Below, piece by piece: positions 4,471 through 45,265 of a stretch of 64,000 nucleotides of DNA. The notes under the pieces are model-generated. The model was not told where the DNA came from. It did no database searches and saw only the letters and a list, made by a program, of their open reading frames with translations. Source of the DNA: Escherichia phage inny; sequence record MN850601.1; one strand, 5' to 3'. Numbering within the stretch: the stretch's first letter is position 1; every line of letters starts with the position of its first letter. The position numbers were made by a program, and so were the translations under genes.

Positions 4471-5283
4471 TTACTTAGTCAAATGATCTTCTATCATTTT
4501 TATGAAAGCAGGATTGCTAAAAGCATCTGCTGCCTTTTCTCTGTAAACAAAGACTCCTCTATCTTCGTAAAGAAGAGTTTCTTCGTAATTAATTCCTGGG
4601 TTAACAACAATCATTTTTGTACCCATATTAAGTGCAGGGAATAATTCCCAATTAAAATTGATAACTTGGTTTGAACATCCTACTACAACAACCAAATCTT
4701 GCATGGTCAAAGTATCAAACAAGTGAGCCATATCTGCATACAAAGGTGCAGCCTCACCAAAAAATACAACATTAGGCTTCACCCAGTTATAATCATCTAT
4801 GTTTATACTATTGTAACCAATATCTACCAGTGTTTTGTAATCTCCAGGATGCATACGGTAAACTACTTCAGGAAGATACCCGTGCACGTGAATAACAGAA
4901 TCCCTGTCCACACCTGCTCGCTCTAGTAGATCATCAACGTTTGTTGTCAAGTTTACTACTTGGTTAGGATATTCCTTAAACCACTTTGCTATTTGAATAT
5001 GTGCAGCATTAGGTTGTACATCTTTAAGCTCAACACGTCTTTTGTTATAAAATTCGTGTGTTTTGGCATACAAGTCCATACCGTTCTCGTCTACACCACC
5101 GACCACTGGAAGATCTGGAGATGTTCTCACACGATAACCTGCTTGGAAAGCTCCAATATCGCAGACCTCTTCTAAGTCATATTCTTCCCATAAGGCACGA
5201 CCACTATCTGTGTCTGTTCGGAACGTTCGAATCCCACTGTCTGCACTTAAACCTGCGCCACTAACAAAAATTACTCTTCGCAT
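4471..5283 (-). CDS. Sir2-family NAD-dependent protein (deacylase/ADP-ribosyltransferase-like)
   Basis: GAGLSADSGIRTFR (Sir2 GAGxS...GIPxFR), TTNVDDLLERAG (TQNxD), HVHG catalytic His, VVFFGE; only two Cys so no zinc ribbon. Confidence 0.75.
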   Translation of the reverse strand: MRRVIFVSGAGLSADSGIRTFRTDTDSGRALWEEYDLEEVCDIGAFQAGYRVRTSPDLPVVGGVDENGMDLYAKTHEFYNKRRVELKDVQPNAAHIQIAKWFKEYPNQVVNLTTNVDDLLERAGVDRDSVIHVHGYLPEVVYRMHPGDYKTLVDIGYNSINIDDYNWVKPNVVFFGEAAPLYADMAHLFDTLTMQDLVVVVGCSNQVINFNWELFPALNMGTKMIVVNPGINYEETLLYEDRGVFVYREKAADAFSNPAFIKMIEDHLTK

Positions 5284-5879: not shown

Positions 5880-6491
5880 TTATACCAGACTTTTAAGGTA
5901 CTTGTCAAGGGCTTCTTGATCACCTTGACAAACATAGCAACGGAAGTCTTGAGCAGAAGGTTCTTTGTCCTCGTCCCAATCCCAATAAACAGTACCTTTA
6001 TAACGTGAACCTGGGAACTCGAAATATGCCACATGAGTAATATGGTGTGGGCCACCCCAAAATTCTGTAAAAGTAAATTGAGGATACGCTGCTTTAACTG
6101 TATTCTCAAACCAAGTTTTACGATCTAATGCTTCGTTTATAAAATAAGCATGGCGTTCCATTTCATCCCAATCTTTCCAAACGCATTTTTCATCCAGAGA
6201 AAAAACAAAATCTTCACTGTTAAAATCGTCTGTATCTGATTCCAAAATATCATAATCATGTGCACTAGGTATCCACCATCCAGCTTCTAATAGTGCTTTT
6301 GCAGGTACAAAACCTTTTTCAGCATATTGATCAAATTCTTTTACTCTACGTACAGTGCAGTATTCATCTTCACCACCAATGTCCAGCAGACAAGCACCTT
6401 TGCGTCTTGCTGCAAGACCATGTGTATCAAAAATTACAACACTACCTTCACCATCTTCACGATCTACTTGATATGCAACTTTTTGAGTCAT
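5880..6491 (-). CDS. hypothetical protein (203 aa)
   Basis: ORF track; long ORF with no recognisable motif. Confidence 0.5.
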   Translation of the reverse strand: MTQKVAYQVDREDGEGSVVIFDTHGLAARRKGACLLDIGGEDEYCTVRRVKEFDQYAEKGFVPAKALLEAGWWIPSAHDYDILESDTDDFNSEDFVFSLDEKCVWKDWDEMERHAYFINEALDRKTWFENTVKAAYPQFTFTEFWGGPHHITHVAYFEFPGSRYKGTVYWDWDEDKEPSAQDFRCYVCQGDQEALDKYLKSLV

Positions 6492-9768: not shown

Positions 9769-10514
9769 TAGTCCTCCTCTAAAGTAGAATAAAATTGTAA
9801 CGTATTTGAATCATCAAAATATGCAAAGGTTAAATTACCATTGAAGCAAGATCCTGTGTCCATATATACCCTATTACTGCTAATCACAGGTTTAGGAACA
9901 TAAGAATGCCCGTGAAATACATAATCTACTCCTGAAACCCTAGGAAGAAGAATCCCTTCAAGTGCGCAATCTATCATATCACGATCCCACATTAAAGATT
10001 CTGTGAATTGAGAAACTTGCTCTTTATTCATATTCAAACAAAATGGCAAAACTTCTGTCACTGGTAAATGTTCCAAAACTGAAGGATACCCACCGTGAAT
10101 AAAGCCTAGTTTCATATTACGATAATTGACAACAAGTACAACAGGTAAATCTTCTAGCATCAAAGCAAGAGCAGTTGCACCCTCTTCTCCACACTCGTCT
10201 AGAACTGTATGGCCTCCGTTCTGAAACCAACATTCGTAATATCGTCTATCACCTTCTAGCAACCCTTTAATCATCATATCTTCATGATTTCCACGAATAC
10301 CATAACGATTTAGCTTTCTGGTGAATTCAACAACACAACGAAAATTCTGCTTGCCGCGATCTGTAAGATCTCCTAAAGATACAACAACATCTTGATCTCG
10401 GATACCTAAAGTATTAACACCTTTCTGGTACAAATCAAAGCAACCATGTAAATCACCAATAATAAACAGGTCTTGATCATCTTTTACACTAATTTCTTGA
10501 TATACTAACATCAA
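9768..10514 (-). CDS. Ser/Thr protein phosphatase (calcineurin-like metallophosphoesterase, PPP family)
   Basis: GDLHGCFD, GDLTDRG, GNHEDMM signature motifs (GDxHG / GDxxDRG / GNHE). Confidence 0.75.
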   Translation of the reverse strand: MMLVYQEISVKDDQDLFIIGDLHGCFDLYQKGVNTLGIRDQDVVVSLGDLTDRGKQNFRCVVEFTRKLNRYGIRGNHEDMMIKGLLEGDRRYYECWFQNGGHTVLDECGEEGATALALMLEDLPVVLVVNYRNMKLGFIHGGYPSVLEHLPVTEVLPFCLNMNKEQVSQFTESLMWDRDMIDCALEGILLPRVSGVDYVFHGHSYVPKPVISSNRVYMDTGSCFNGNLTFAYFDDSNTLQFYSTLEED

Positions 10515-22452: not shown

Positions 22453-24714
22453 TTACATCTTACAAGCCTCACAACCGGATTCTTCATCCTCTTGAGCGAG
22501 TGAGGTTGCTGATTTTGTTCGACTATTTAGATAGTACAAAGATTTACCACCAAGTTTTGCAAACTGAAGGATATATTGCATTTCTGATTTAATGGATAAA
22601 CGACCACCTTCCATCTTAGAATAGTCAATCCACTTGTCACATGATGCACCTTGATCTAAGAATTTAGTCAATAGTCCATATGCTTCAGCCATATCTTTAT
22701 CTGGCGTATCCCAAGCCGATTGGTAAATATCTTTTAGTTTATCGTAATCTGGCACAATAAACAAGACATTACCTTTTTGGCTTTGTTTATAAACTATAGT
22801 ATCACGTACAGGATACACAGAGTTAGTCGTATTACTTACAAGACTACTAGACTCATTCGGAGCAATAGCTGCTAATACACTATTTCGGATACCACCTTGT
22901 GCAATTATATCTTGTCGTAAACCTTCCCAATCCATTTTAAGTTTAAAATTGCCAATATCGTCTACAGCTTTAGCGTAGGTATCAATAGGCAACCATCCTT
23001 CAGGCCATTTGGTTTTATGCATCCATTCTGCATTACCTTTCTCTTTTGCCAAACGAAGAGAAGCTCTTGCTAACCAGTAATAATGTCTTTCTGCTAATTC
23101 GTGAATTAGTTTTTTGCCGTAAGGATCTGAATAAGTAACAAAATTACTTGCCAGATAATGTGCCAGGTTTGTAATACCCACACCGATAGACCTACGTGCT
23201 TTAGCAGTGATTTCGTTATGTTTAAACGGATACTGCATTGTTTCAATAACATTATCAATAGTTAGAACGGTATAATATGCAACATCTTCATATTCTTCTG
23301 GTGTAACGCGACCAGCTACAATAGAAGACAGGAAGCATAATGCCAATTCTTGATCTTCTGTATTCTCACCTGTGAAAAGATCAGTCATACTGTGAAATGC
23401 TTTCGTAGGTAAGAAAATTTCTTGGCACAAGTTTGACTGATAAATAACATCCTTAAACGGAGTATGCTTATTAGCATTATCCGCAAAGAACATATAAATA
23501 CGTCCTGTCTCTGCTCTTTGTGTAATAATTTCTGCCAGAAGATCTCGTGCTTTTACAAACTTCTTCTTAATTCGTTTGCGACTAACTTTTTCATATACTT
23601 CTTCAAACTCTTCCTCGCTTTTATAAAGCGCCTCATAGAGTTCTGGTGCTTCGTCATAACTGACTAGCATCCAATCTTTACCTTTTGCTGCACGGCGCAG
23701 GAAAGCATTGTTTACTACAATAGAGTAATCAAGTTTATCTACTCGTTTTTCACTAACAGTAGTTGGGTTTTTCAAACGTACCAGATCTTCAAAATCAGGT
23801 TCTAATATTGTAAACGTTACTGTTGCACTTCCACCACGACTTGCTTGTTTTGATGCTCCAACACTTGTTTCCATCCATTTCAGATATGGTAAAAGACCAC
23901 CGTGAACGATACGGTTGTTCTTAACACCTTGTCCTGTAGCACGGGTTTGGAGGTTAACACCAATACCTGCATTATTCAATGTATACTCATGAGCAAGATA
24001 GTTAGCAATTGCTAAAGATTCTGCTGTATCGTCTGCTCTAAACAGACAACAAGAAGCACTACCTTTAATCTTAGTACGCAAAGTTGTTAAATAAGGTGAT
24101 GGTAAATTAATCTTAAGATCACTTACGTAGGTATATAGACGTTTAATGTCTTCTACTCTGCGATCTTTTGGTTGGATTTCCATTACCTTCATTGCTACAC
24201 CAATGAATAAAAATTGTGGTGATTCAAAAACCACATCATTGATCGCATCTTTCACAAGATACTTATCAACCATCTGGCGCAGTACGGAATAACCATAAGT
24301 TAGGTTTTTATCATGATTGATAATTTTACCAATCTCAATAATTTCTTCTTCTGTATAATCCATTTTCCCCCAATAGCCTTTACTTACAGACATATTGTAG
24401 AAATCCAGGAGGGAGGGGATATTGTGATATCCCCCATGAGCCTGTTTATAGATCATACCAAGAAGTAACCGACCTGCCATATCACTATATGCCTGATCTT
24501 TCTTATCAATACATGCTGCTATCATAGCTTTATGTAAATCACGAGTAGGCACACCGTCGTAACAACGTTTAACAGCTTCGAGTTCAATTTCAGACCAATT
24601 TAATTTACCAGCAGCAAACTCTGACCATTTACGAAGTTTTTCTGGATTAAATTCTTCTTTCTTGCCGTTTGTTTTTGTTACATAACGGATAGATTTGCTT
24701 AGATACTGAGTCAC
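22453..24714 (-). CDS. nrdA: ribonucleotide reductase class Ia alpha subunit
   Basis: 753 aa; conserved blocks NxCxE-like SNLCQEI, C-terminal CEACKM redox cysteines, GGIRNS as in NrdA. Confidence 0.9.
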   Translation of the reverse strand: MTQYLSKSIRYVTKTNGKKEEFNPEKLRKWSEFAAGKLNWSEIELEAVKRCYDGVPTRDLHKAMIAACIDKKDQAYSDMAGRLLLGMIYKQAHGGYHNIPSLLDFYNMSVSKGYWGKMDYTEEEIIEIGKIINHDKNLTYGYSVLRQMVDKYLVKDAINDVVFESPQFLFIGVAMKVMEIQPKDRRVEDIKRLYTYVSDLKINLPSPYLTTLRTKIKGSASCCLFRADDTAESLAIANYLAHEYTLNNAGIGVNLQTRATGQGVKNNRIVHGGLLPYLKWMETSVGASKQASRGGSATVTFTILEPDFEDLVRLKNPTTVSEKRVDKLDYSIVVNNAFLRRAAKGKDWMLVSYDEAPELYEALYKSEEEFEEVYEKVSRKRIKKKFVKARDLLAEIITQRAETGRIYMFFADNANKHTPFKDVIYQSNLCQEIFLPTKAFHSMTDLFTGENTEDQELALCFLSSIVAGRVTPEEYEDVAYYTVLTIDNVIETMQYPFKHNEITAKARRSIGVGITNLAHYLASNFVTYSDPYGKKLIHELAERHYYWLARASLRLAKEKGNAEWMHKTKWPEGWLPIDTYAKAVDDIGNFKLKMDWEGLRQDIIAQGGIRNSVLAAIAPNESSSLVSNTTNSVYPVRDTIVYKQSQKGNVLFIVPDYDKLKDIYQSAWDTPDKDMAEAYGLLTKFLDQGASCDKWIDYSKMEGGRLSIKSEMQYILQFAKLGGKSLYYLNSRTKSATSLAQEDEESGCEACKM

Positions 24715-35202: not shown

Positions 35203-35607
35203 TTATTGTAGCTTAAGTGAACTGCGAAGACGTTCCTCTTGCTGATCACGAATATGTTGTGGAACCTCATGAATTGAATCGTTACCGTGCCTATTCTCCA
35301 CAACTAAAGAAATAACTTGATAACCAAACTCTTCAGCAAGAGTTAAATAAGGTTTAAGTTCTTTTTCTGTAGTAGAGGTATTAGAAACAATAATCTTTTC
35401 AACACCATACTGCATATATTTTTGTACTTTGACACGACACCATTGGTGTGCTTTATGGATATTCTCTTGTTTCCACTCATACACACCATCTTCAGTGTAG
35501 TGGTATTGATCTGCCTCACAAATAGGCCAATGATTTTCAGAGATAATTTCTGCTACTGTAGATTTACCTGCACCTGAAACACCACGTAAAATGATAAGTT
35601 GTTTCAT
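35203..35607 (-). CDS. P-loop polynucleotide kinase-like protein (Pnk kinase domain-like)
   Basis: MKQLIILRGVSGAGKSTVAEII resembles T4 Pnk N-terminal kinase P-loop; immediately follows ligase gene. Confidence 0.6.
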   Translation of the reverse strand: MKQLIILRGVSGAGKSTVAEIISENHWPICEADQYHYTEDGVYEWKQENIHKAHQWCRVKVQKYMQYGVEKIIVSNTSTTEKELKPYLTLAEEFGYQVISLVVENRHGNDSIHEVPQHIRDQQEERLRSSLKLQ

Positions 35608-36540
35608 TTAGCCTCCAAAGAAGTTTTCTATTTCTTTACGTCGCTCTTGTGGATCGAGAGCAGCCCATTGAGCCTTCGTAAATTTATTTCGAAGCCATTC
35701 TAGCAAAGTATAATATTCTTCGTCAACAATTTGTTTAGCATTGTTTGGGTTGTCCCAAATCATATCCCACTTCTTATTGCCACCACGCATAAGGAATTTC
35801 TTAGCAAGATAGTATGGTGACTTAATCTTTAAGAGTAAGTTAAACGGATAGTTTGTTTCACGAACAACAAAGCCTTCGTGTCTACAATGTTTAGACATTT
35901 CAACAACATCTGAAAATTTAATCATTGGATAAACTTCAGGACGTTTAAATTTTGTAATAGATGCAATCCCATCAAGAACACCTTCAGGTAACATGAAACT
36001 TGTCCCATCAAGATTTTGAATTCTTGCTCCAATTAAGTATGCGCCTGGTTCTTCTTCGACAATATGTGGATCAGAAGGATCACAGATTTCAAAAAGGAAA
36101 GTTGCTTTTGCACTTTCTGTCCACTTAATGAAATACTCTATGTCATCACACTCGGAAACAATACGGTTCTTGGCAATAGTTGCAAAGTCTGACTCTAGGC
36201 TCCCTGTTGTTGATACAACAAGTTGCCCTTTGTACACACCTACAGATGCCATAAAACCGTTTACTTTACGGACAGCATCTACAAATTCATCTCCTGGAAG
36301 ATCTGTACCATTCTCAAAACGATTAAAGATTTTAGTAAAAGGCCAAATAACAATATTATCTTCTGAATCAACAACCAACCCACGACAATCTAAAAGTCGT
36401 TTGTCAACGTTCCACAAGTTATCCCAGAATACATTGTTTTTGTATTTAAGTACAGCAAGACCAGCATACTCTCCAGATTTAACTTCTTTTTTATGCACTA
36501 AACCTTTTGCAATCAGGTCATCACAATTGAACTTAGCCAC
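35608..36540 (-). CDS. RNA ligase-like nucleotidyltransferase (Rnl family, motif I KVNG)
   Basis: VRKVNGFMASV (KxNG motif I), EGFVVRE (motif IV), LLLKIK (motif V); flanked by kinase and phosphoesterase. Confidence 0.55.
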   Translation of the reverse strand: MAKFNCDDLIAKGLVHKKEVKSGEYAGLAVLKYKNNVFWDNLWNVDKRLLDCRGLVVDSEDNIVIWPFTKIFNRFENGTDLPGDEFVDAVRKVNGFMASVGVYKGQLVVSTTGSLESDFATIAKNRIVSECDDIEYFIKWTESAKATFLFEICDPSDPHIVEEEPGAYLIGARIQNLDGTSFMLPEGVLDGIASITKFKRPEVYPMIKFSDVVEMSKHCRHEGFVVRETNYPFNLLLKIKSPYYLAKKFLMRGGNKKWDMIWDNPNNAKQIVDEEYYTLLEWLRNKFTKAQWAALDPQERRKEIENFFGG

Positions 36541-36541
36541 C

Positions 36542-37093
36542 TTAATCTCCTTTGATTATCTTATGATGATCTACAACAATAATATCACGCTTATCCATAA
36601 TAGAGATGATTTCGTCAAAATGTAAGATTTTCCCGTGTGCATCCCAACCAACATCCAACATTTTCCCATACAAATGATCAGGGAATGATCCGTGAGAGTG
36701 TCCGTGTAGCATGATTGATCCATGCCCTTGTTTATTCCAGGCAGCCATAGGGTAATGACTTAAGACGAAGAACAGCTTCTGATATTTCACTTCGTCATAA
36801 TACACAACTTCTCCATACTCTGCAAGCACTTTTCTGTGTTTACTGTAATCATGGTTCCCAACACAGTAAGTAATATCCCCTTGGAGACGGGAAGCAATCT
36901 TACGGGTATCTTCTTCAGTCCCGAAACAGAAGTCCCCAAGATGGTACATCTTTACTCCTGGTGTTGTGGCACATTTATTCCATGCTTCGATCAGTGCTTC
37001 TGTCATATGCTCCATATCTTCCCACGGGCGATATTCAGGAGCAAACTCTCGGATACGTTTGTGCATAAAATGCAAATCACTTGTAATAAACAT
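36542..37093 (-). CDS. calcineurin-like metallophosphoesterase
   Basis: SDLHF, GDFCFG, GNHDY, HGHSHG metal-binding motifs. Confidence 0.75.
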   Translation of the reverse strand: MFITSDLHFMHKRIREFAPEYRPWEDMEHMTEALIEAWNKCATTPGVKMYHLGDFCFGTEEDTRKIASRLQGDITYCVGNHDYSKHRKVLAEYGEVVYYDEVKYQKLFFVLSHYPMAAWNKQGHGSIMLHGHSHGSFPDHLYGKMLDVGWDAHGKILHFDEIISIMDKRDIIVVDHHKIIKGD

Positions 37094-37610: not shown

Positions 37611-37985
37611 TTAATAGTTAACACGTTTAATTTCAACACCATAGGATGAAATAAAATTTTCCTTAGCTAACATATATTTACCAGCAGCAGAAGGATTTGA
37701 TGTATGAACATAGATAGTTTTAAGAGCATCCCATTCACCAGCGTACAACATACATTCTACATCTAAGAACGCATGATAGCCTTCTTGATCTTCTCCAAGA
37801 TCATTATCGAAGTGTATTTCTGAGATATTATTGAAATTATCTTCATCTGAAACAAAAGATGACCAATCCCCAAAAGATTTTAACCAAATGGCATCCTCAT
37901 AACCATAATCTTTAGGATCTCTTAAATCGTCTAACCAAATAATTTTAGCCACTATCAACCCCCTTCCTGTTTCTCTTCTTTCCAA
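37611..37985 (-). CDS. hypothetical protein (124 aa)
   Basis: ORF track. Confidence 0.45.
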   Translation of the reverse strand: MERRETGRGLIVAKIIWLDDLRDPKDYGYEDAIWLKSFGDWSSFVSDEDNFNNISEIHFDNDLGEDQEGYHAFLDVECMLYAGEWDALKTIYVHTSNPSAAGKYMLAKENFISSYGVEIKRVNY

Positions 37986-39931: not shown

Positions 39932-39960
39932 TTGACTTTAGATCTATCTGTATGTAGAGT
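39932..39960 (+). promoter_or_regulatory. sigma70-like promoter (TTGACT-N17-TAGAGT)
   Basis: Consensus-like hexamers 40 nt upstream of gene at 40000. Confidence 0.5.
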
Positions 39961-39999
39961 AGAGAACATAAAGTCCTAACTCAACTAAGGAGATAAACA

Positions 40000-40893
40000 A
40001 TGAAAGTTAGTATTCTACATGGTGTTGACTGTTATGTTACTGATGTAGACGTTAAAGTCTTTACATTCTCTGGTGGAGAACAACATGTTCAACTAGACAC
40101 GAATCTATCAGGTTTCAATCATGCTACAGACAGAATCTTACTCTCTTTAGAAGTAAGATCTGCTAAAGACTTGATGACTTTGGTTATGACTAAGAATGCA
40201 TTGGACAATATGCTATATCATAAACCATATTGTGTTGATTTACTCATGTTGTATGTGCCGTATGCACGACAAGACAGAGTGTGTGAGCCTGGGGAAGCAT
40301 TCGGAGTTAAAGCCTTTGCTTCTATAATTAATTCATTAAATTTCTCACGTGTTATCGTTGCTGATCCACATAGTGATGTTACTCCGGCAGTGTTTGACAG
40401 ACTCTGTGTAATACCTCAAGAAGAGATTGCTTACGAAACTTTAAAGTGGAAGTTACGTATGGAGAATTTTGCTCTTGTTAGTCCTGATGGTGGTGCTCTT
40501 AAGAAAATATTTAAATTATCTAAGAAAATGTCTTTAGATGTGTTCTGTGCAGAGAAGGTTAGAGATACTGCAACAGGTGCTATTGTTCGTACAGACATTT
40601 CTGTACAGGATTTCAATAAGCGTAACCTGATGATCGTAGATGATATCTGTGACGGCGGTAGAACTTTTATTGAATTGGCTAAAGTGCTACGTGCTCGTAA
40701 CGCAGGTAAGATTGAGTTATATGTTACACACGGTATCTTTTCTAAAGGTCTTAAAGAGTTAAGTGAGCACTTTGACTGCATTCATTCTCTTAATGTGTGG
40801 GAAGATAACATCCAAGAAGATTCCGGTGTTCTTGTTAAGAATCAGTCAGATTTGCAACAACAAATTGTATCTCCATACGTGTGGAATTTTTAA
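40000..40893 (+). CDS. ribose-phosphate pyrophosphokinase family protein (Prs-like; candidate ADP-ribose pyrophosphokinase of an NAD+ reconstitution pair)
   Basis: PRPP-synthetase-like motifs VADPHSD and MIVDDICDGGRTF; 297 aa; AGGAGA RBS. Confidence 0.8.
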   Translation: MKVSILHGVDCYVTDVDVKVFTFSGGEQHVQLDTNLSGFNHATDRILLSLEVRSAKDLMTLVMTKNALDNMLYHKPYCVDLLMLYVPYARQDRVCEPGEAFGVKAFASIINSLNFSRVIVADPHSDVTPAVFDRLCVIPQEEIAYETLKWKLRMENFALVSPDGGALKKIFKLSKKMSLDVFCAEKVRDTATGAIVRTDISVQDFNKRNLMIVDDICDGGRTFIELAKVLRARNAGKIELYVTHGIFSKGLKELSEHFDCIHSLNVWEDNIQEDSGVLVKNQSDLQQQIVSPYVWNF

Positions 40894-40903
40894 ATAATAA
40901 GTG

Positions 40904-40932
40904 TTGACAATAGGGAGTATGCTTAGTAAGAT
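40904..40932 (+). promoter_or_regulatory. sigma70-like promoter (GTGTTGACA-N17-TAAGAT)
   Basis: Consensus -35 with -10-like TAAGAT upstream of 40965. Confidence 0.5.
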
Positions 40933-40964
40933 ACTCCCACACTAACAAACAAGGAGACATAACT

Positions 40965-42698
40965 ATGAATATTTTTGCACCTTTTGCTACTGATTGGTAT
41001 AAACCTGGTCACAAGCAGATGTACAACCAAAATACAAAACTCATTTTCTCTAATTTAACTCCTCGTAATGATAAAAACTTTGCACACTATGCAGATCGTG
41101 AAGCACGTGGTGTAATTGTTTTAGGTATTCGTCGAGCAGTTACTGATGCTCTTGTAACTATGTGGGATAGCTTCTTTAAAATGTCTCGTAGTGCAGCAGT
41201 AAATAAATTTTATCGTATGTCTAAAAATGCATTAGGTGCTTCTGCTCCTTCTGCTGAATGTTGGGGAGAATTGCACGATTTAGGTTATCTTCCGCTGGAA
41301 GTTCGATCTCTGCCAGAAGGTGTTTTGTGTCCTATTGGTGTTCCTGTGTTTACTGTGCATAATACTTTAGAAAAATTCTTTTGGTTAACTAACTATGTGG
41401 AAACACTATTGTCAGATGAAACTTGGAAGACAATGACTAATGCTACAGCAGCTTTTCAGTATAAGCGTATTGCTATGGCATATGCGATGGCAACGTGTGA
41501 TAATATTGATCATGTTAACTTCCAGTGTCATGATTTTAGCCTACGTGGTTTAAGTAATATCGAAGATGGTTATAAGAGTGGTATCGCTCATTTGGCATCT
41601 TTCACAGGAACAGATAACATTCTGGCTATTGAGACTGTGCATGATTATTATGGTATTGATTATGATCAGTTTGTTGCAGGTTCTATTCCGGCAACAGAAC
41701 ATTCAGTAGCAACGACTAACATTGGAGCTATTGTTGAAGATCTGAAGAAACATTTCCCACATCTTAAAGATGATGTTGATGGGCTTCGTTATGTAGCAGA
41801 GAAAGAGTTTCTTCGCCGCTATATTGAAGAAATTGTTCCAGAAGGTTTTTGTTCATATGTAGCAGATTCTTATGACTACTGGGCTGTCTTGACTCGCATT
41901 CTGGTCGAGTTGAAAGATTCCATTATGTCACGAAATGGTCGTCTTGTTATTCGTCCAGATTCAGGAGATCCGGTTAAAGTTGTTGCAGGATACAATGTTG
42001 AATCTTTTGATAACTATGAAGACCTTTTAAATAATGGTATTGCTACAGCCACTGAAGTAGTTCATTTGGCTGATGTTAATAAGTATTACAATGTTCTTCA
42101 GGATTGCAGTGTTGCTGATTGTATTGATGAAACTTATGAGATTCCTTATTGTGAAGCAGTAGGTTCTATTCAAATCCTTTGGGAAGTGTTTGGTGGTACT
42201 ATCAACCGAAAAGGCTACAAGGTTCTTGATCAGCACATCGGTATGATTTATGGTGATTCTATTACTGTTGAACGAGAACACGAAATCTTACGCCGACTGA
42301 AGAAGAAAGGTTTTGCAGCTTCCAATATTGTATTTGGTGTTGGTAGTTATACTTATCAGTTCAATACACGAGATACTTTTGGTTTTGCTGTTAAAGCAAC
42401 AGGTAGTATCATCGGTGAACACGAAATTTTGGTAAGTAAGGAGCCTAAAACTGATCCTGGTAAACGTTCTGCAAAAGGTTTTATTAAGGTTGTTAAGGAT
42501 ACAAACGGTAAACTTTCTCTCGTGGATAATCTTTCTTTTAAAGATATTCAAGATGAAGACAATGAGTTAAAAGTTATCTTCAGGGATGGTACGGTTATTA
42601 CACCACAAGTAGAAGGACGTGATGAAACATTTACGGATATCCGCAATCGTGTTGATGTAGAGGTTCTTCGTACTATGGGAACCATCCAGGTTGACTAA
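40965..42698 (+). CDS. nicotinamide phosphoribosyltransferase family protein (NadV/NAMPT-like; candidate nicotinamide ADP-ribose transferase)
   Basis: N-terminal FATDWYKPGHK (NAMPT DxYKxxH), 577 aa, family-typical size. Confidence 0.8.
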   Translation: MNIFAPFATDWYKPGHKQMYNQNTKLIFSNLTPRNDKNFAHYADREARGVIVLGIRRAVTDALVTMWDSFFKMSRSAAVNKFYRMSKNALGASAPSAECWGELHDLGYLPLEVRSLPEGVLCPIGVPVFTVHNTLEKFFWLTNYVETLLSDETWKTMTNATAAFQYKRIAMAYAMATCDNIDHVNFQCHDFSLRGLSNIEDGYKSGIAHLASFTGTDNILAIETVHDYYGIDYDQFVAGSIPATEHSVATTNIGAIVEDLKKHFPHLKDDVDGLRYVAEKEFLRRYIEEIVPEGFCSYVADSYDYWAVLTRILVELKDSIMSRNGRLVIRPDSGDPVKVVAGYNVESFDNYEDLLNNGIATATEVVHLADVNKYYNVLQDCSVADCIDETYEIPYCEAVGSIQILWEVFGGTINRKGYKVLDQHIGMIYGDSITVEREHEILRRLKKKGFAASNIVFGVGSYTYQFNTRDTFGFAVKATGSIIGEHEILVSKEPKTDPGKRSAKGFIKVVKDTNGKLSLVDNLSFKDIQDEDNELKVIFRDGTVITPQVEGRDETFTDIRNRVDVEVLRTMGTIQVD

Positions 42699-43004: not shown

Positions 43005-43115
43005 ATGTCTACAGAAATTATTTTTGGCTTATCTGTTTTTATTGCTATTGTATCTTTTGTATGCGGTTATACACTAGGTTACAGATCAAGAAAAAATATT
43101 GTAAAAACTAGTTGA
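43005..43115 (+). CDS. small membrane peptide (36 aa)
   Basis: Hand-translated; AAGGAAACAG upstream; single TM-like segment IIFGLSVFIAIVSFVCGYTLGY. Confidence 0.3.
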   Translation: MSTEIIFGLSVFIAIVSFVCGYTLGYRSRKNIVKTS

Positions 43116-43445: not shown

Positions 43446-43521
43446 GGTTCCATAGCTCACTGACGAGAGCGCACACCTCATAAGTGTCGAGGGCAGGGAT
43501 TGTAACCCTGGGGAACCACCA
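43446..43521 (+). tRNA. tRNA-like gene, anticodon CAT (Met or Ile2), non-canonical T-loop ATTGTAA
   Basis: Hand fold: acceptor GGTTCC/GGAACC, D-arm GCTC...GAGC, anticodon loop CTCATAA, T-stem CAGGG/CCCTG, encoded ACCA end. Confidence 0.45.
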
Positions 43522-43552
43522 TTTAAAAGGAGGTGCTATGCATCTCCTATAT

Positions 43553-43638
43553 GCAAGTGTGGTGGAATTGGTGATACACATTGTGCTTAAAACGCAACGC
43601 TTAAATGATTGAGGGTTCGAATCCCTCCACTTGCACCA
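43553..43638 (+). tRNA. tRNA-Leu (anticodon TAA), type II
   Basis: Hand fold: acceptor GCAAGTG/CACTTGC, anticodon loop CTTAAAA, long variable arm, T-arm GAGGG-TTCGAAT-CCCTC, encoded CCA. Confidence 0.75.
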
Positions 43639-43640
43639 AC

Positions 43641-43746
43641 GCCTAGTAGGGTATTTGGTAATTCCGAGGCCATCAAAGCCTGAAAAATATGTTAGACCGT
43701 TTTGTCTAACTAAATACGAAATATGGTTCGATTCCATAACTAGGCT
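43641..43746 (+). tRNA. atypical long tRNA-like gene (106 nt); possible anticodon TCA (opal-reading) - uncertain
   Basis: Perfect acceptor GCCTAGT/ACTAGGC and T-arm TATGG-TTCGATT-CCATA; candidate anticodon loop CATCAAA; 7-bp hairpin in extended variable region; no encoded CCA. Confidence 0.3.
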
Positions 43747-43781
43747 CCCGATTTAAATAGTAATTTTTTAATAAAAATATC

Positions 43782-43810
43782 TTGACATTTACTTAGTTTT
43801 TTGTTATAGT
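43782..43810 (+). promoter_or_regulatory. sigma70-like promoter (TTGACA-N17-TATAGT)
   Basis: Near-consensus; transcript would start right at tRNA-like gene at 43822. Confidence 0.55.
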
Positions 43811-43821
43811 CATTATGAAAA

Positions 43822-43903
43822 CGGGGTGTATCTCACCTGACTTCTAATCAGGCGTTAACCGAGTAATTGGAGTATGCAGGTTCGAATCCTGTCACCCCGG
43901 CCA
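43822..43903 (+). tRNA. tRNA-Arg-like (anticodon TCT) with non-canonical architecture (no D-arm, 23-nt insert before T-arm)
   Basis: Perfect acceptor CGGGGTG/CACCCCG, anticodon arm CCTGA-CTTCTAA-TCAGG, T-arm GCAGG-TTCGAAT-CCTGT, encoded CCA; only 7 nt between acceptor and anticodon stem. Confidence 0.4.
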
Positions 43904-43920
43904 AAAAGTTTTAAAAACTA

Positions 43921-43949
43921 CTTGACAAGCAAGATAGTTTTATGTTAGA
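43921..43949 (+). promoter_or_regulatory. sigma70-like promoter (TTGACA-N17-TTAGAT)
   Basis: Consensus -35; upstream of tRNA-Ser. Confidence 0.45.
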
Positions 43950-43965
43950 TTTAAAGTATGGTAAC

Positions 43966-44055
43966 AGGAAGGTAGGGCGCAGCGGTGCGCAACCAGGTTT
44001 GAACCCTGGCCCATTGTAGCGATACGGTGATGGTTCGACTCCATTATCTTCCTCC
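43966..44055 (+). tRNA. tRNA-Ser (anticodon TGA), type II
   Basis: Hand fold: acceptor GGAAGGT/ATCTTCC, anticodon arm CCAGG-TTTGAAC-CCTGG, long variable arm, T-loop TTCGACT, encoded CCA. Confidence 0.65.
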
Positions 44056-44236
44056 AAATTCGCTTAGGAGCTTTATGAATTATAAAACTATTGGACAGAT
44101 TGTTACCGGAGTTAAGATTGTAAATAATAAAGTTGTTTATGAGTATTCTAATCTTCAACAATCTGAAGATGGTAAGAATATTCGTATGGTAAAAGCAGAA
44201 CAAAAAGATTCCGGTTGTTTTGAATAATTAAGAACG

Positions 44237-44321
44237 GTAGATTGGTGAAATGGTAGCCACAACAGTTTGCTAAACTGTCGTCGGAAACGGCGTGTAGGTT
44301 CAAGTCCTACATCTACCGCCA
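44237..44321 (+). tRNA. tRNA-Ser (anticodon GCT), type II
   Basis: Hand fold: acceptor GGTAGAT/ATCTACC, anticodon arm ACAGT-TTGCTAA-ACTGT, variable hairpin CGTCG-GAAA-CGGCG, T-arm GTAGG-TTCAAGT-CCTAC, CCA. Confidence 0.7.
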
Positions 44322-44491
44322 AGTTATCTTTAATGTAGCTTGTTGCTCTTAGTTGCTTGGTGTAACTTTTTGGAAGGATGGCTGCAACCATCTTACTTTA
44401 ATAGAGTAAACTTTCGGCAGATGGCCCCCACCATCTTACCGATACCTCATAGTTAGTGGTGCGAACACTGGCTATTTTAAAGATAATTTAT
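44322..44491 (+). other. unassigned structured spacer inside tRNA array (two GATGG-loop-CCATCTTAC hairpins)
   Basis: Repeated motif CCATCTTAC and hairpins resembling the 3' end of adjacent tRNA-Ser; no complete cloverleaf found by hand. Confidence 0.3.
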
Positions 44492-44567
44492 ACATCGTTA
44501 GCTTAGTTGGTAGAGCAAGGGGCTTTTAACTCCAAGGTCGAAGGTTCGAATCCTTCACGATGTACCA
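44492..44567 (+). tRNA. tRNA-Lys (anticodon TTT)
   Basis: Hand fold: acceptor ACATCGT/ACGATGT, D-arm GCTT-AGTTGGTA-GAGC, anticodon loop CTTTTAA, T-arm GAAGG-TTCGAAT-CCTTC, CCA. Confidence 0.7.
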
Positions 44568-44572
44568 AACAC

Positions 44573-44659
44573 GTAGGTATCGCATAGCGGCAATTGCTGG
44601 AGACTGTAAATCTCCTGCCCTTCGGGGCTTCGTTGGTTCGAGTCCAACTACCTGCACCA
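44573..44659 (+). tRNA. tRNA-Tyr (anticodon GTA), type II
   Basis: Hand fold: acceptor GTAGGTA/TACCTGC, anticodon arm GGAGA-CTGTAAA-TCTCC, variable hairpin, T-arm GTTGG-TTCGAGT-CCAAC, CCA. Confidence 0.7.
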
Positions 44660-44666
44660 AATTAAA

Positions 44667-44751
44667 GATGGATTGGCCTAGTGGTTGGGCGACGGACTGT
44701 TAATCCGTGAACGAAAGTTCTAGCAAGGTTCAAATCCTTGATCCATCGCCA
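44667..44751 (+). tRNA. tRNA with Asn-type anticodon arm (GTT) but long 15-nt variable arm
   Basis: Hand fold: acceptor GATGGAT/ATCCATC, anticodon arm ACGGA-CTGTTAA-TCCGT, variable hairpin GAAC-GAAA-GTTC, T-arm CAAGG-TTCAAAT-CCTTG, CCA. Confidence 0.6.
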
Positions 44752-44830
44752 AATAGTGCTTGTAGAGTTAATAGAAACCTCTAGAATTTTCTAGAATTGT
44801 AGGTATCAAATCCTACCAAGCAAATATTTT

Positions 44831-44905
44831 GCTCCTATCGTATAACGGCTATTACGGTTGCCTTGTAAGCAACTTATCAGGGTTCGAGTCCTTGTGGGAG
44901 CACCA
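44831..44905 (+). tRNA. tRNA-Thr (anticodon TGT)
   Basis: Hand fold: acceptor GCTCCTA/TGGGAGC, anticodon arm GTTGC-CTTGTAA-GCAAC, T-arm CAGGG-TTCGAGT-CCTTG, CCA. Confidence 0.7.
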
Positions 44906-44927
44906 ATTTAACTCTAAAGGAGTGTAT

Positions 44928-45251
44928 GTGACAGAAAAAGAGTTAGAGAAATATTTTAATATCAATGTTTTCGATGGTTTTGATGATATTGAAGATGTTG
45001 AAAGATATTATGAAGTAGAGTTAGATAAGGATAACATTGTAATTCTTTCTGCCACTTATGATTGTGCATATTATGAAGGCGAATCTCACGTTTATTTCTA
45101 TGATATGAAAACATCTTTGTTTTATGAAGTACACGCATATCATTGTTCTTGTTATGGCTTAGAAGGTCAGTGGGAACCTGAAGAAATAGGTGATTTGAGC
45201 TTTACGGTTGCATATCTAAACAGACGTGGTGCATCTACTATTTTAAAATAA
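44928..45251 (+). CDS. hypothetical protein embedded in tRNA array (about 107 aa)
   Basis: ORF track 44829-45251 trimmed to GTG after AAGGAG RBS to avoid overlap with tRNA-Thr; Cys/His/Tyr-rich. Confidence 0.45.
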   Translation: MTEKELEKYFNINVFDGFDDIEDVERYYEVELDKDNIVILSATYDCAYYEGESHVYFYDMKTSLFYEVHAYHCSCYGLEGQWEPEEIGDLSFTVAYLNRRGASTILK

Positions 45252-45265
45252 ATATTAAAAGCCTC

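Follow-up and report, generated by a model that had tools for sequence, protein, structure and literature searches.

NAD+ reconstitution pathway 1 (NARP1) is a recently discovered viral way of undoing metabolite-depletion immunity. The pathway has been validated in vivo for Escherichia phage JohannRWettstein (Bas63), whose genes 79-80 encode Adps (QXV81770.1) and Namat (QXV81771.1) (bioRxiv 10.1101/2024.02.11.579819), and both biochemistry and structure have been reported for the Bacillus phage SPbetaL1 module (Adps WIT26982.1; Namat PDB 9W5W/9W5X) (PMC12774641). Enzyme assays are confined to the SPbetaL1 and P. foliorum proteins, with Bas63 represented by in vivo metabolites. In a variant, NARP1-AP, Vibrio phage Gary carries the same Adps and Namat core in the order Adps-Adpp-Namat (bioRxiv 10.64898/2026.01.28.702374); this variant is recognized by a Macro_2 gene (PF14519, Poa1p-like) no more than two genes from the pair. 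NARP2 and canonical Nampt/NadV are represented by NadV and NatV of Vibrio phage KVP40, H. ducreyi NadV (9KE8), and human, mouse, and rat NAMPT; NARP2 needs an Nmnat.

Here, we analyzed a 64,000-nucleotide stretch of DNA (the window) from Escherichia phage inny (MN850601.1), a phi92-like coliphage (Justusliebigvirus). Two adjacent genes in the window form, with a probability of roughly 0.85, a NARP1 module. The original prediction had read the Prs-like protein as Adps and the NAMPT-like protein as Namat. This NARP1 reading of the phi92-like pair is correct but already published (Osterman et al.), and it adds no new kind of system. Table S1 of that survey enters phi92 FR775895_00103, which differs from the window Prs-like protein by one residue, as a Prs/Adps homologue with "Namat within 10 genes: Yes," and Table S2 labels the NAMPT homologues of phi92, PaulScherrer, and EmilieFrey "Adps-associated" (bioRxiv 10.1101/2024.02.11.579819). 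A literature search found no deletion or complementation study of the pair in a phi92-like phage.

Organization of the locus

The gene pair region is 100% identical to that of phages ALITA and KMB37, and the pair is kept in 55 phage records at 97 to 100% nucleotide identity. Translation of the open reading frames (ORFs) reproduced exactly the coordinates, strands, and motifs first proposed for the two genes (Table 1), with VIVADPHSDV, LMIVDDICDGGRTF, and FATDWYKPGHK all found. The genes lie 71 bp apart on the + strand, and the adps-then-namat order is preserved in relatives with Namat identities of 50 to 54%. Bas63 shows the same order, with a short gap that also contains a GC-rich hairpin, and both phages are virulent E. 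coli myophages. Their lineages differ, however (Felixounavirus, 87 kb, for Bas63; Justusliebigvirus, about 148 kb, for inny), and so do the surroundings of the pair, which in Bas63 lies within a unidirectional block of early genes by nrd genes and in inny is at the start of a + strand block. SPbetaL1, in contrast, is a temperate Bacillus phage. Upstream of adps is a 420-bp intergenic region between divergent genes, in which both the coding strand and the GC skew change over, and the + strand block that the pair opens lies ahead of a tRNA cluster.

Table 1. Features of the adps/namat locus in the inny window
Feature	Coordinates	Strand	Basis
Sigma-70-like promoter candidate upstream of adps, TTGACT-N17-TAGAGT (9/12 matches)	39932..39960	+	Consensus match only
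adps ribosome-binding site, AAGGAGA	39987..39993	+	Sequence; 6 nt 5' of ATG at 40000
adps, ADP-ribose diphosphokinase candidate, Prs family, 297 aa	40000..40893	+	ORF, PHROG 619
Adps catalytic-loop motif, K186-V-R-D-T-A-T-G-A-I	40555..40584	+	Residue mapping
Sigma-70-like promoter candidate in the adps-namat gap, TTGACA-N17-TAAGAT (10/12 matches)	40904..40932	+	Consensus match
GC-rich intercistronic hairpin (GGGAGTAT / ATACTCCC)	40913..40938	+	RNA fold
namat ribosome-binding site, AAGGAGA	40951..40957	+	Sequence
namat, nicotinamide ADP-ribose transferase candidate, long-form NAMPT family, 577 aa	40965..42698	+	ORF, PF04095
Selectivity-clamp loop (SCL) region, residues 35-49 (NDKNFAHYADREARG)	41067..41111	+	Alignment
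Namat insertion 1 (about residues 253-282), absent from SPbetaL1 Namat and NAMPT	41721..41810	+	Alignment gaps
Namat insertion 2, about residues 343-399	41991..42161	+	Alignment gaps and model
Namat SCH adenine-clamp motif GSYTYQFNTRD, residues 460-470 (Y462, F466)	42342..42374	+	Definition in PMC12774641

Each gene had been credited with its own TTGACA-type promoter. Such a site is present in the adps-namat gap, where Bas63 has no counterpart, but only a weaker TTGACT-type match lies upstream of adps. The pattern of the gap site, TTGACA-N17-TAAGAT, occurs six times in the window against 0.84 expected, a count reached in 0 of 100 shuffles, and given this recurrence it is probably a real promoter class; a generic promoter scan of the region showed no enrichment (19 sites versus 14.9 ± 4). 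The function of the gap candidate is nevertheless ambiguous, since it overlaps the intercistronic hairpin. The hairpin (-15.3 kcal/mol; z = -2.8) lies about 12 nt 5' of the namat ribosome-binding site, and Bas63, L006, and L009 have a hairpin of different sequence at the equivalent place. Because it is followed by no T-run, it is not a canonical intrinsic terminator.

Adps and Namat compared with characterized enzymes

Both family assignments are far beyond chance. The Prs-like protein matches PHROG 619 ("ribose-phosphate pyrophosphokinase"; E = 5e-91) and PF00156/PF14572, and the NAMPT-like protein matches PHROG 448 ("nicotinamide phosphoribosyl transferase"; E = 7e-188) and PF04095 (E = 6e-38). 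Window Adps is 35% identical to the Adps proteins of Bas63 and SPbetaL1, 40 to 41% identical to other catalogued Adps, and 28% identical to E. coli Prs, and its pairwise score of 83 bits with the biochemically characterized SPbetaL1 Adps is hardly above the 72 bits that it gives with E. coli Prs. It reaches none of the Prs equivalog models (best score, 98 bits versus a cutoff of 296; cutoffs, 296 to 536); the only Prs model that it passes is the broad subfamily TIGR01251 (118.8 versus a cutoff of 113). The in vivo-validated Bas63 Adps likewise fails these equivalogs, and the Bas63 and inny proteins behave identically against the NCBIfam models.

K186, in the catalytic loop, aligns with K162 of SPbetaL1 Adps, the residue whose change to alanine inactivates that enzyme (Osterman Table S3; bioRxiv 10.1101/2024.02.11.579819). 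The loop K-x-R-[DN]-x-x-T-G-x-I is complete in six of eight catalogued Adps that we aligned, and its core, K-x-R-[DN]-x-x-T, is retained in all eight, whereas E. coli Prs has KRRPRANVSQ at this position. DPHS is likewise common to window Adps and the eight aligned proteins, while E. coli Prs has DLHA-QIQGFF. Window Adps also contains FSGGE, YARQDR, and DDICDGGRT. Class I Prs (E. coli Prs, PDB 4S2U), a member of the same two-domain PRTase-type fold family, also retains YARQDR, DD..GG.T, and the catalytic-loop Lys/Arg but has a longer C-terminal region. DPHS, KVR[ND]xxTGxI, and DDICDGGRTF are shared by the Bas63 and inny proteins, but SPbetaL1 Adps is of the Gram-positive type (DDLSSFGGT). No solved Adps structure was found in a PDB sequence search or in the literature consulted.

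In a PDB sequence search, the best match of window Namat was SPbetaL1 Namat (9W5X/9W5W; E = 8e-118); H. ducreyi NadV scored 6e-100, and among mammalian NAMPT entries the best, from mouse and human, reached 4e-48. Foldseek with an AF2 model (pLDDT, 91.5) likewise returned 9W5X/9W5W as the top matches (TM, 0.93; 38% identity). H. ducreyi NadV, a true Nampt that is 34 to 35% identical to window Namat, is globally almost as similar (339 bits and TM 0.93, versus 398 bits for SPbetaL1 Namat), so that it is chiefly the clamp motif and the gene association that carry the Namat assignment. NadV and Nampt proteins share with inny Namat the type II phosphoribosyltransferase fold, a core that binds nicotinamide and ribose-phosphate, and the catalytic His, but their clamp positions are nonaromatic.

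Of 20 published NAD+-contact residues of SPbetaL1 Namat, 16 are identical in the window protein and 4 differ conservatively (SPbetaL1 to window: R40 to K, A362 to S, F392 to Y, and Y396 to F). The catalytic core aligns as well (D10, Y12, F191, S192, R194, D217, A243, H246, R330, D332, G430, D431, G460, and S461), with the catalytic His and the residues that contact nicotinamide, ribose, and phosphate all retained. The published Namat SCH signature is GSX-phi-X-phi-X-phi-TRD, in which positions 3 and 7 are aromatic (PMC12774641). It is present in inny and SPbetaL1 Namat, and the Bas63 motif, GSYTYQYMTRD, is close to that of inny. Each of 46 long-form homologues, the most distant at 49% identity, keeps the GS...(T/S)RD frame with Y or F at position 3; at position 7, 43 of them have Y or F and the other three have M. 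At the same site, H. ducreyi NadV has GAQTYQRNTRD, with Q and R at the stacking positions, and Xanthomonas (Xcc) Nampt has GGALLQKVDRD, with A and K. For the SCL, the picture is less clear. Its third residue is Arg, Lys, or Tyr in described enzymes, and after a Lys the adenine-stacking residue is the fourth one (PMC12774641), which is W in Bas63 (DKWF). In inny (DKNF), K37 aligns with SPbetaL1 R40 and is followed by the nonaromatic N38 and a nearly invariant F39.

SPbetaL1 Namat is a short form (491 aa) that lacks both inny insertions, whereas Bas63 Namat, 40% identical to the inny protein over the full length, is a long form (593 aa) that has an insertion at each of these sites, the first shorter than in inny and the second longer and of different sequence. 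In the AF2 model, insertion 1 is a helical hairpin (helices 246-263 and 271-290), and R275 and E279 in its region are invariant among the 46 long-form homologues. Insertion 2 is a small alpha/beta excursion directly past the ribose-binding R330-P-D332-S-G-D loop (strands 345-348, 365-368, and 373-376, with short helices; pLDDT mostly 87 to 96), and its sequence is poorly conserved among the same homologues. Both insertions lie near the active-site face.

We infer the substrates, products, and anti-defense effect of the inny pair from its homologues, studied in vivo for Bas63 and both in vitro and in crystals for SPbetaL1; even the closest of the validated proteins show just 35 to 40% identity to the inny pair. 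By this analogy, an NAD+-depleting defense (SIR2-HerA/Nezha, DSR1/2, type I Thoeris, SEFIR, and similar systems) would split NAD+ into ADP-ribose and nicotinamide. Adps would transfer pyrophosphate from ATP to the 1'' position of ADP-ribose, forming ADPR-PP, and Namat would swap the pyrophosphate for nicotinamide, yielding NAD+ directly without an NMN intermediate or an adenylyltransferase. Adenine would be recognized by the SCH aromatic pair (Y462 and F466) together with T468/R469/D470 and an SCL residue, and ADPR-PP would thus be preferred over PRPP.

NMNAT, Macro proteins, and the genome neighborhood

The original prediction had reported no visible NMNAT, and this holds for the window and for two complete near-identical genomes, KMB37 and alia. 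The P-x-[HT]-x-G-H nucleotidyltransferase motif is absent from all six frames of the three sequences, in a scan that did detect the positive control in L009. A tblastn search with a relative's NadR-type NMNAT returned nothing better than E = 0.6, and none is annotated in KMB37. The inny module differs from NARP2 both in this absence and in the Prs-family partner of its Namat. That the absence of NMNAT favors NARP1, as had been argued, is a weaker point than it looks, because in Erwinia phage Hena1 and contig L009, both close relatives, the same pair occurs alongside PnuC and a NadR-type NMNAT.

No Macro match, including Macro_2, was found in the ten ORFs flanking the pair; the sole Macro protein of the genome is a PF01661 member about 65 kb away, in a Ter/PRTase_3/HAD cluster. 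With no flanking Macro_2 phosphatase, the inny module is plain NARP1, not NARP1-AP. Since the Macro_2 gene Adpp is lacking, the module is predicted to give no rescue from aRES, whose product is ADPR-1''-phosphate, and inny is predicted to be sensitive to that system.

The divergent block beside the pair encodes a metallophosphoesterase, an RNA ligase, and a cREC protein whose predicted substrates are cyclic phosphates or cADPR; the equivalent block of relatives additionally has PnuC and the NadR-type NMNAT. It is conceivable, although we consider it unlikely, that the pair is one arm of a larger island for handling NAD+ and ADP-ribose. In such an island, the neighbors could turn other ADP-ribose-derived products into ADP-ribose for Adps. 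Candidate inputs could be cADPR isomers, the ADPR-1''-phosphate that aRES makes, and ADPR-1'',2''-cyclic phosphate, into which ADPR-PP decays spontaneously. If so, the island would be a Macro-free, RyR-free functional analogue of NARP1-AP or RyDEP. Separately, and just as speculatively, the two Namat insertions, on the catalytic face past the R-P-D-S-G-D loop, might give the long form a function missing from the short SPbetaL1 enzyme, for instance in substrate gating, in docking of Adps, or in regulation.

Alternative roles and implications

The same two genes could encode canonical salvage, in which a true PRPP synthetase and a true NadV make NMN that host NadR or PncC/NadD carries on to NAD+; the pair would then be a general metabolic booster and not a specific ADP-ribose recycling device. 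GenBank annotation names fit this role, as do the high similarity of window Namat to H. ducreyi NadV and the ability of Namat enzymes to form NMN from PRPP in vitro (PMC12774641). The proteins also pass TIGR01251 and the PRK09198 equivalog (461 versus 405), but the validated Bas63 Adps and Namat pass the same library models, so database names do not discriminate. What makes salvage quite improbable is that window Namat has the SCH stacking aromatics missing from NadV, that window Adps falls about 200 bits or more short of every Prs equivalog cutoff, and that phi92 genes are counted within the NARP1 set. In addition, SPbetaL1 Adps converts ADP-ribose and ATP to ADPR-PP, with no product in the Prs control reaction. 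That result also bears on a mixed role, with NARP1 operating upon ADP-ribose buildup and the pair also feeding NMN or PRPP into the nucleotide and NAD+ supply in ordinary infection, in which case its selective value would not be purely anti-defense. Namat retains about half of the NMN-forming activity of human NAMPT (PMC12774641), the phage encodes NAD+-consuming or NAD+-related proteins of its own (a SIR2-family protein at 4471-5283 and cREC), PnuC and NadR adjoin the same pair in relatives, and NARP1 homologues occur in nonmobile bacterial regions. However, the ADPR-PP intermediate in Bas63 was seen only with an active defense system, and PRPP synthesis is not evidenced for any Adps, which leaves this mixed role a slim chance.

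A decayed, nonfunctional remnant of a salvage module is by far the least probable origin. The locus is able to decay, as a truncated Adps-Namat chimeric ORF in some rV5-like phages indicates (Shigella phage Ag3; PHROG 12872). In inny, however, neither ORF is truncated, each is preceded by a good ribosome-binding site, no catalytic residue has been lost, and the Namat model is confident; the near-identity of the pair across the 55 phages and the 100 or more invariant positions among the 46 long-form Namat homologues also argue against decay.

Correct recognition of NARP1 helps predict how phages plate on SIR2, TIR, SEFIR, or DSR hosts, for example in choosing therapeutic phages, and phi92-like phages are in use for such purposes. 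Current names are of little help here: all 49 annotated GenBank/RefSeq records of this phage group that the search returned call the proteins PRPP synthetase and nicotinamide/nicotinate phosphoribosyltransferase, or hypothetical proteins, and curated HMM libraries give misleading names even to validated NARP1 proteins. The clamp motif and the Adps loop motif, taken together, offer a practical discriminator.

Gene pair and published classification

The original prediction read two adjacent ORFs as a PRPP-synthetase-family and a nicotinamide-phosphoribosyltransferase-family gene; both were recovered at exactly the predicted coordinates, with the listed motifs present in both translations. The two genes are separated by 71 bp on the same strand. 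The upstream product matched PHROG 619 (E = 5e-91), with weak matches to the PRTase and Prs domains of Pfam, while the downstream product matched PHROG 448 (E = 7e-188) and PF04095 (E = 6e-38). Coding strand and GC skew switch at this locus, and the + strand block begins with the pair. The tRNA cluster that follows contains two genes each for Met, Leu, and Ser and single genes for Lys, Tyr, Asn, Thr, Gly, Gln, Pro, Phe, and Ile. The GenBank record of phage vB-Eco-KMB37 (KMB37) places over these tRNAs several "hypothetical protein" CDSs, which are probably spurious.

The source of the window is a phi92-like Escherichia coli myophage (Stephanstirmvirinae, Justusliebigvirus). Across both genes, nucleotide identity was 100% with phages ALITA and KMB37 and 97 to 99% with phi92 and the BASEL phages PaulScherrer, EmilieFrey, and JohannJBalmer. 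The full pair was present in 55 records; where annotated, its products are named ribose-phosphate pyrophosphokinase/PRPP synthetase and nicotinamide (or nicotinate) phosphoribosyltransferase, and otherwise hypothetical proteins. Four records—MG065639, MG065645, MG065656, and MG065689—bear the name "Campylobacter phage," give C. jejuni as the host, and carry a pair 98% identical to that of E. coli phi92-like phages; these host labels look doubtful.

Identification of the pair as NAD+ reconstitution pathway 1 (NARP1) is already known. NARP1 was defined by Osterman et al. (bioRxiv 10.1101/2024.02.11.579819) in vivo with phage Bas63 and enzymologically with SPbetaL1; Bas63 (JohannRWettstein) is a Felixounavirus and not phi92-like. 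Table S1 of that preprint lists phi92 FR775895_00103, from which the window Adps differs by one residue, and the PaulScherrer and EmilieFrey orthologues as "Namat within 10 genes: Yes," and Table S2 lists the NAMPT homologues of the same three phages as "Adps-associated." Because phi92-like proteins appear in both tables, the original interpretation coincides with the published classification of the same genes. Our literature search found no experiments on phi92-lineage NARP1. The published tables, clamp motif, residue conservation, fold, and context all support the NARP1 reading; gene identity and the last four of these were observed directly here. In the likeliest mechanism (probability of about 0.85), Adps would pyrophosphorylate ADP-ribose freed by NAD+-depleting defences to ADPR-PP, which Namat would join to nicotinamide, regenerating NAD+. 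The substrates, products, and phenotype assigned to the pair are those expected from homologues with 35 to 40% identity. The insertions in Namat, the hairpin between the two genes, and the adjoining cREC and phosphoesterase genes remain as leads.

Features of the adps-namat locus and of related loci (nucleotide positions refer to the window unless another sequence is named; L002, L005, L006, and L009 are the loci of KMB37, Bas63, and two relatives)
Feature	Sequence	Position	Strand	Details
SIR2-family protein	window	4471-5283	-	PF02146, E = 1e-22
RNA-repair-like cluster	window	35203-37093	-	P-loop kinase (AAA_33), T4 Rnl1-type RNA ligase (PF09511), calcineurin-like metallophosphoesterase (36542-37093)
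cREC protein	window	37611-37985	-	124 aa; PF20274 cREC_REC, "cyclic-phosphate processing Receiver domain," E = 4e-13
Weaker promoter candidate	window	39932-39960		TTGACT-N17-TAGAGT
adps candidate ORF	window	40000-40893	+	297 aa; AAGGAGA ribosome-binding site
Promoter candidate	window	40904-40932		TTGACA-N17-TAAGAT; between adps and namat
GC-rich hairpin	window	40913-40938		-15.3 kcal/mol, z = -2.8; overlaps the 40904-40932 promoter candidate
namat candidate ORF	window	40965-42698	+	577 aa; AAGGAGA ribosome-binding site
Namat insertion 1	window Namat	about residues 253-282		helical hairpin; R275 and E279 invariant
Namat insertion 2	window Namat	about residues 343-399		alpha/beta excursion directly after the ribose-binding R330-P-D332-S-G-D loop
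15-tRNA-gene cluster	window	43446-46196	+	directly 3' of the pair
namat-upstream hairpin	L005 (Bas63)	23637-23652
namat-upstream hairpin	L006	about 5955-5972
namat-upstream hairpin	L009	about 9967-9982
PnuC and NadR-type region	L009	2109-4798	-	PnuC (NMN_transporter, E = 3e-40) and NadR-type NMNAT/RNK (motifs GKFAPLTLGH, ISATKIR), for L009 and Hena1 together
NadR-type NMNAT/RNK region	Erwinia phage Hena1 MN732867	99021-100103		as for L009
Macro (PF01661), ComF-like PRTase_3, HAD hydrolase	KMB37 OR525700	113804-116019 (L002 42805-45020)	-	outside the window

Assignment of Namat and Adps

Pfam, PHROGs, and NCBIfam do not separate Adps from Prs or Namat from Nampt, since the validated Bas63 proteins receive the same names and scores. 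In a sequence search of solved structures, the window Namat best matched SPbetaL1 Namat (9W5X/9W5W; E = 8e-118), followed by H. ducreyi NadV (HdNadV; 6e-100) and, as the best mammalian (mouse/human) entries, NAMPT (4e-48). An AlphaFold2 model built with 46 homologues as input reached a pLDDT of 91.5, and Foldseek again placed the Namat crystal structures at the top (TM 0.93, 38% identity), with HdNadV a close second. Since HdNadV scores nearly equal, global sequence and fold similarity discriminate only weakly between Namat and Nampt; the published clamp discriminator was therefore used, and the Namat call rests on the clamp motif.

The specificity of Namat for ADPR-PP arises from a "selectivity clamp" (Lan et al., PMC12774641). 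The motif in the window Namat (GSYTYQFNTRD, residues 460 to 470) resembles those of the SPbetaL1 (GSFTYQYNTRD) and Bas63 (GSYTYQYMTRD) Namats, whereas true Nampt enzymes have GAQTYQRNTRD (HdNadV) or GGALLQKVDRD (Xanthomonas). The signature frame with Y/F at position 3 was found in all 46 long-form homologues, with identity down to 49%; position 7 was Y/F in 43 of them and M in the other three. The variable clamp loop gives a less clear signal: the third residue of the window Namat is K37, of the allowed class, and the fourth is N38, followed by the nearly invariant F39; in Bas63 Namat, by contrast, the fourth residue is a W that stacks on adenine. Of 20 NAD+-contact residues mapped from SPbetaL1 Namat, 16 are identical and 4 are conservative swaps (R40 to K37, A362 to S432, F392 to Y462, and Y396 to F466). 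The catalytic His is H246.

The window Namat has the long form, with two insertions relative to SPbetaL1 Namat. The in vivo-functional Bas63 Namat also carries insertions at both sites, so a long-form enzyme is compatible with function in NARP1. Among other architectures, one Namat homologue of 867 aa (P0097) was considered as an Adps-Namat fusion, or Rosetta-stone evidence, and rejected, as BLASTP gave no Adps similarity. It is ~290 aa longer than the others, and the extra part is internal, not Adps-like, and could be an intein or homing-endonuclease insertion. A single ORF of Shigella phage Ag3 (FJ373894_00125) fuses the first ~225 Adps residues to the part of Namat that starts near Namat residue 225; it resembles a deletion chimera without the Namat N-terminal domain, and this chimera type has its own family, PHROG 12872.

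The window Adps shares 35% identity with Bas63 Adps, 40 to 41% with other catalogued Adps, and 28% with E. coli Prs; identity with SPbetaL1 Adps is 35% across a shorter stretch. Its K186 aligns with K162 of SPbetaL1 Adps, the K162A mutant of which is inactive. In an alignment of nine sequences (eight Adps and E. coli Prs), every Adps has [DE]-[PL]-H-S together with the core of the catalytic-loop motif K-x-R-[DN]-x-x-T-G-x-I, whereas DLHA and KRRPRANVSQ are found in E. coli Prs. The shared H-S and catalytic-loop motifs are an observation original to this analysis. The only NCBIfam model passed was the broad TIGR01251 (118.8 versus a cutoff of 113); the window Adps scored some 200 bits or more below each Prs equivalog cutoff, and the validated Bas63 Adps behaved in exactly the same way. 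No solved Adps structure turned up in PDB sequence or literature searches.

NMN adenylyltransferase and Adpp

The original prediction favoured NARP1 over canonical salvage partly because no NMN adenylyltransferase (NMNAT) was visible. The absence was borne out for the window and for the complete KMB37 and Justusliebigvirus alia genomes: the P-x-[HT]-x-G-H nucleotidyltransferase signature occurs in none of the six frames of these sequences (a relative's NadR-type enzyme, the positive control, was detected), tblastn with the relative's NadR-type NMNAT gave a best match of only E = 0.6, and no NMNAT is among the KMB37 annotations. The argument drawn from it, however, is not diagnostic alone, because a NadR-type NMNAT also occurs in relatives that have the same Adps/Namat pair. 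In contig L009, Erwinia phage Hena1, Klebsiella phage KB57, and others, a pair with the Namat-type clamp motif lies a few kilobases from a NadR-type NMNAT/ribosylnicotinamide kinase and a PnuC transporter. The phi92-like genomes do not have this insert, despite syntenic flanks. The Namats of these relatives were nevertheless labelled only "Adps-associated" by Osterman et al. (bioRxiv 10.1101/2024.02.11.579819), who reported no phage with both pathways. In relatives with a 50 to 54% identical Namat, a Prs-like gene is immediately upstream or two small ORFs away. NadR-like genes were found by tblastn in 743 phage records.

The NARP1-AP variant is defined by an associated phosphatase, Adpp (Macro_2, PF14519) (Osterman et al. 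2026, bioRxiv 10.64898/2026.01.28.702374). No Macro_2 phosphatase was found in the ten ORFs flanking the pair, which therefore represents plain NARP1 rather than NARP1-AP; the module is not expected to overcome the aRES system. KMB37 also encodes a Macro-domain protein, but this candidate for an Adpp in trans was rejected, as it belongs to PF01661, not PF14519, and lies ~65 kb from the pair. This gene and its PRTase_3 and HAD neighbours, located inside a TerD, TerF-vWA, TelA, and TerC cluster, constitute another ADP-ribose- or nucleotide-related gene set.

Intercistronic element and neighbouring genes

TTGACA-N17-TAAGAT occurs six times in the window (7377, 19745 on the - strand, 29413, 40904, 42691, and 43922) versus 0.84 expected by chance, and is therefore likely a genuine promoter class; a further copy at 43112 has an 18-nt spacer. 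Several copies are directly 5' of + strand genes or tRNAs. Just 5' of the namat ribosome-binding site, four distantly related phages have GC-rich hairpins of unrelated sequence (z of -2.8 in the window, -2.5 in Bas63, -1.3 in L006, and -2.5 in L009); these may be attenuators or mRNA-stability elements. The element in the window gap may act as a promoter, an attenuator/stabiliser, or both.

The cREC gene is 2 kb from the pair and divergently transcribed, and the RNA-repair-like cluster is directly beyond it, near the tRNA cluster. Iyer et al. 2021 (PMC7824862) predicted a role for the cREC domain in the processing of cADPR or of 2',3'-cyclic phosphates and reported its linkage to genes for NAD+ processing and to RNA ligases. 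In L009, a 46%-identical cREC homologue adjoins PnuC and NadR. The phage also encodes a SIR2-family (NAD+-dependent or NAD+-consuming) enzyme, placing it in one genome with an NAD+-rebuilding pathway.
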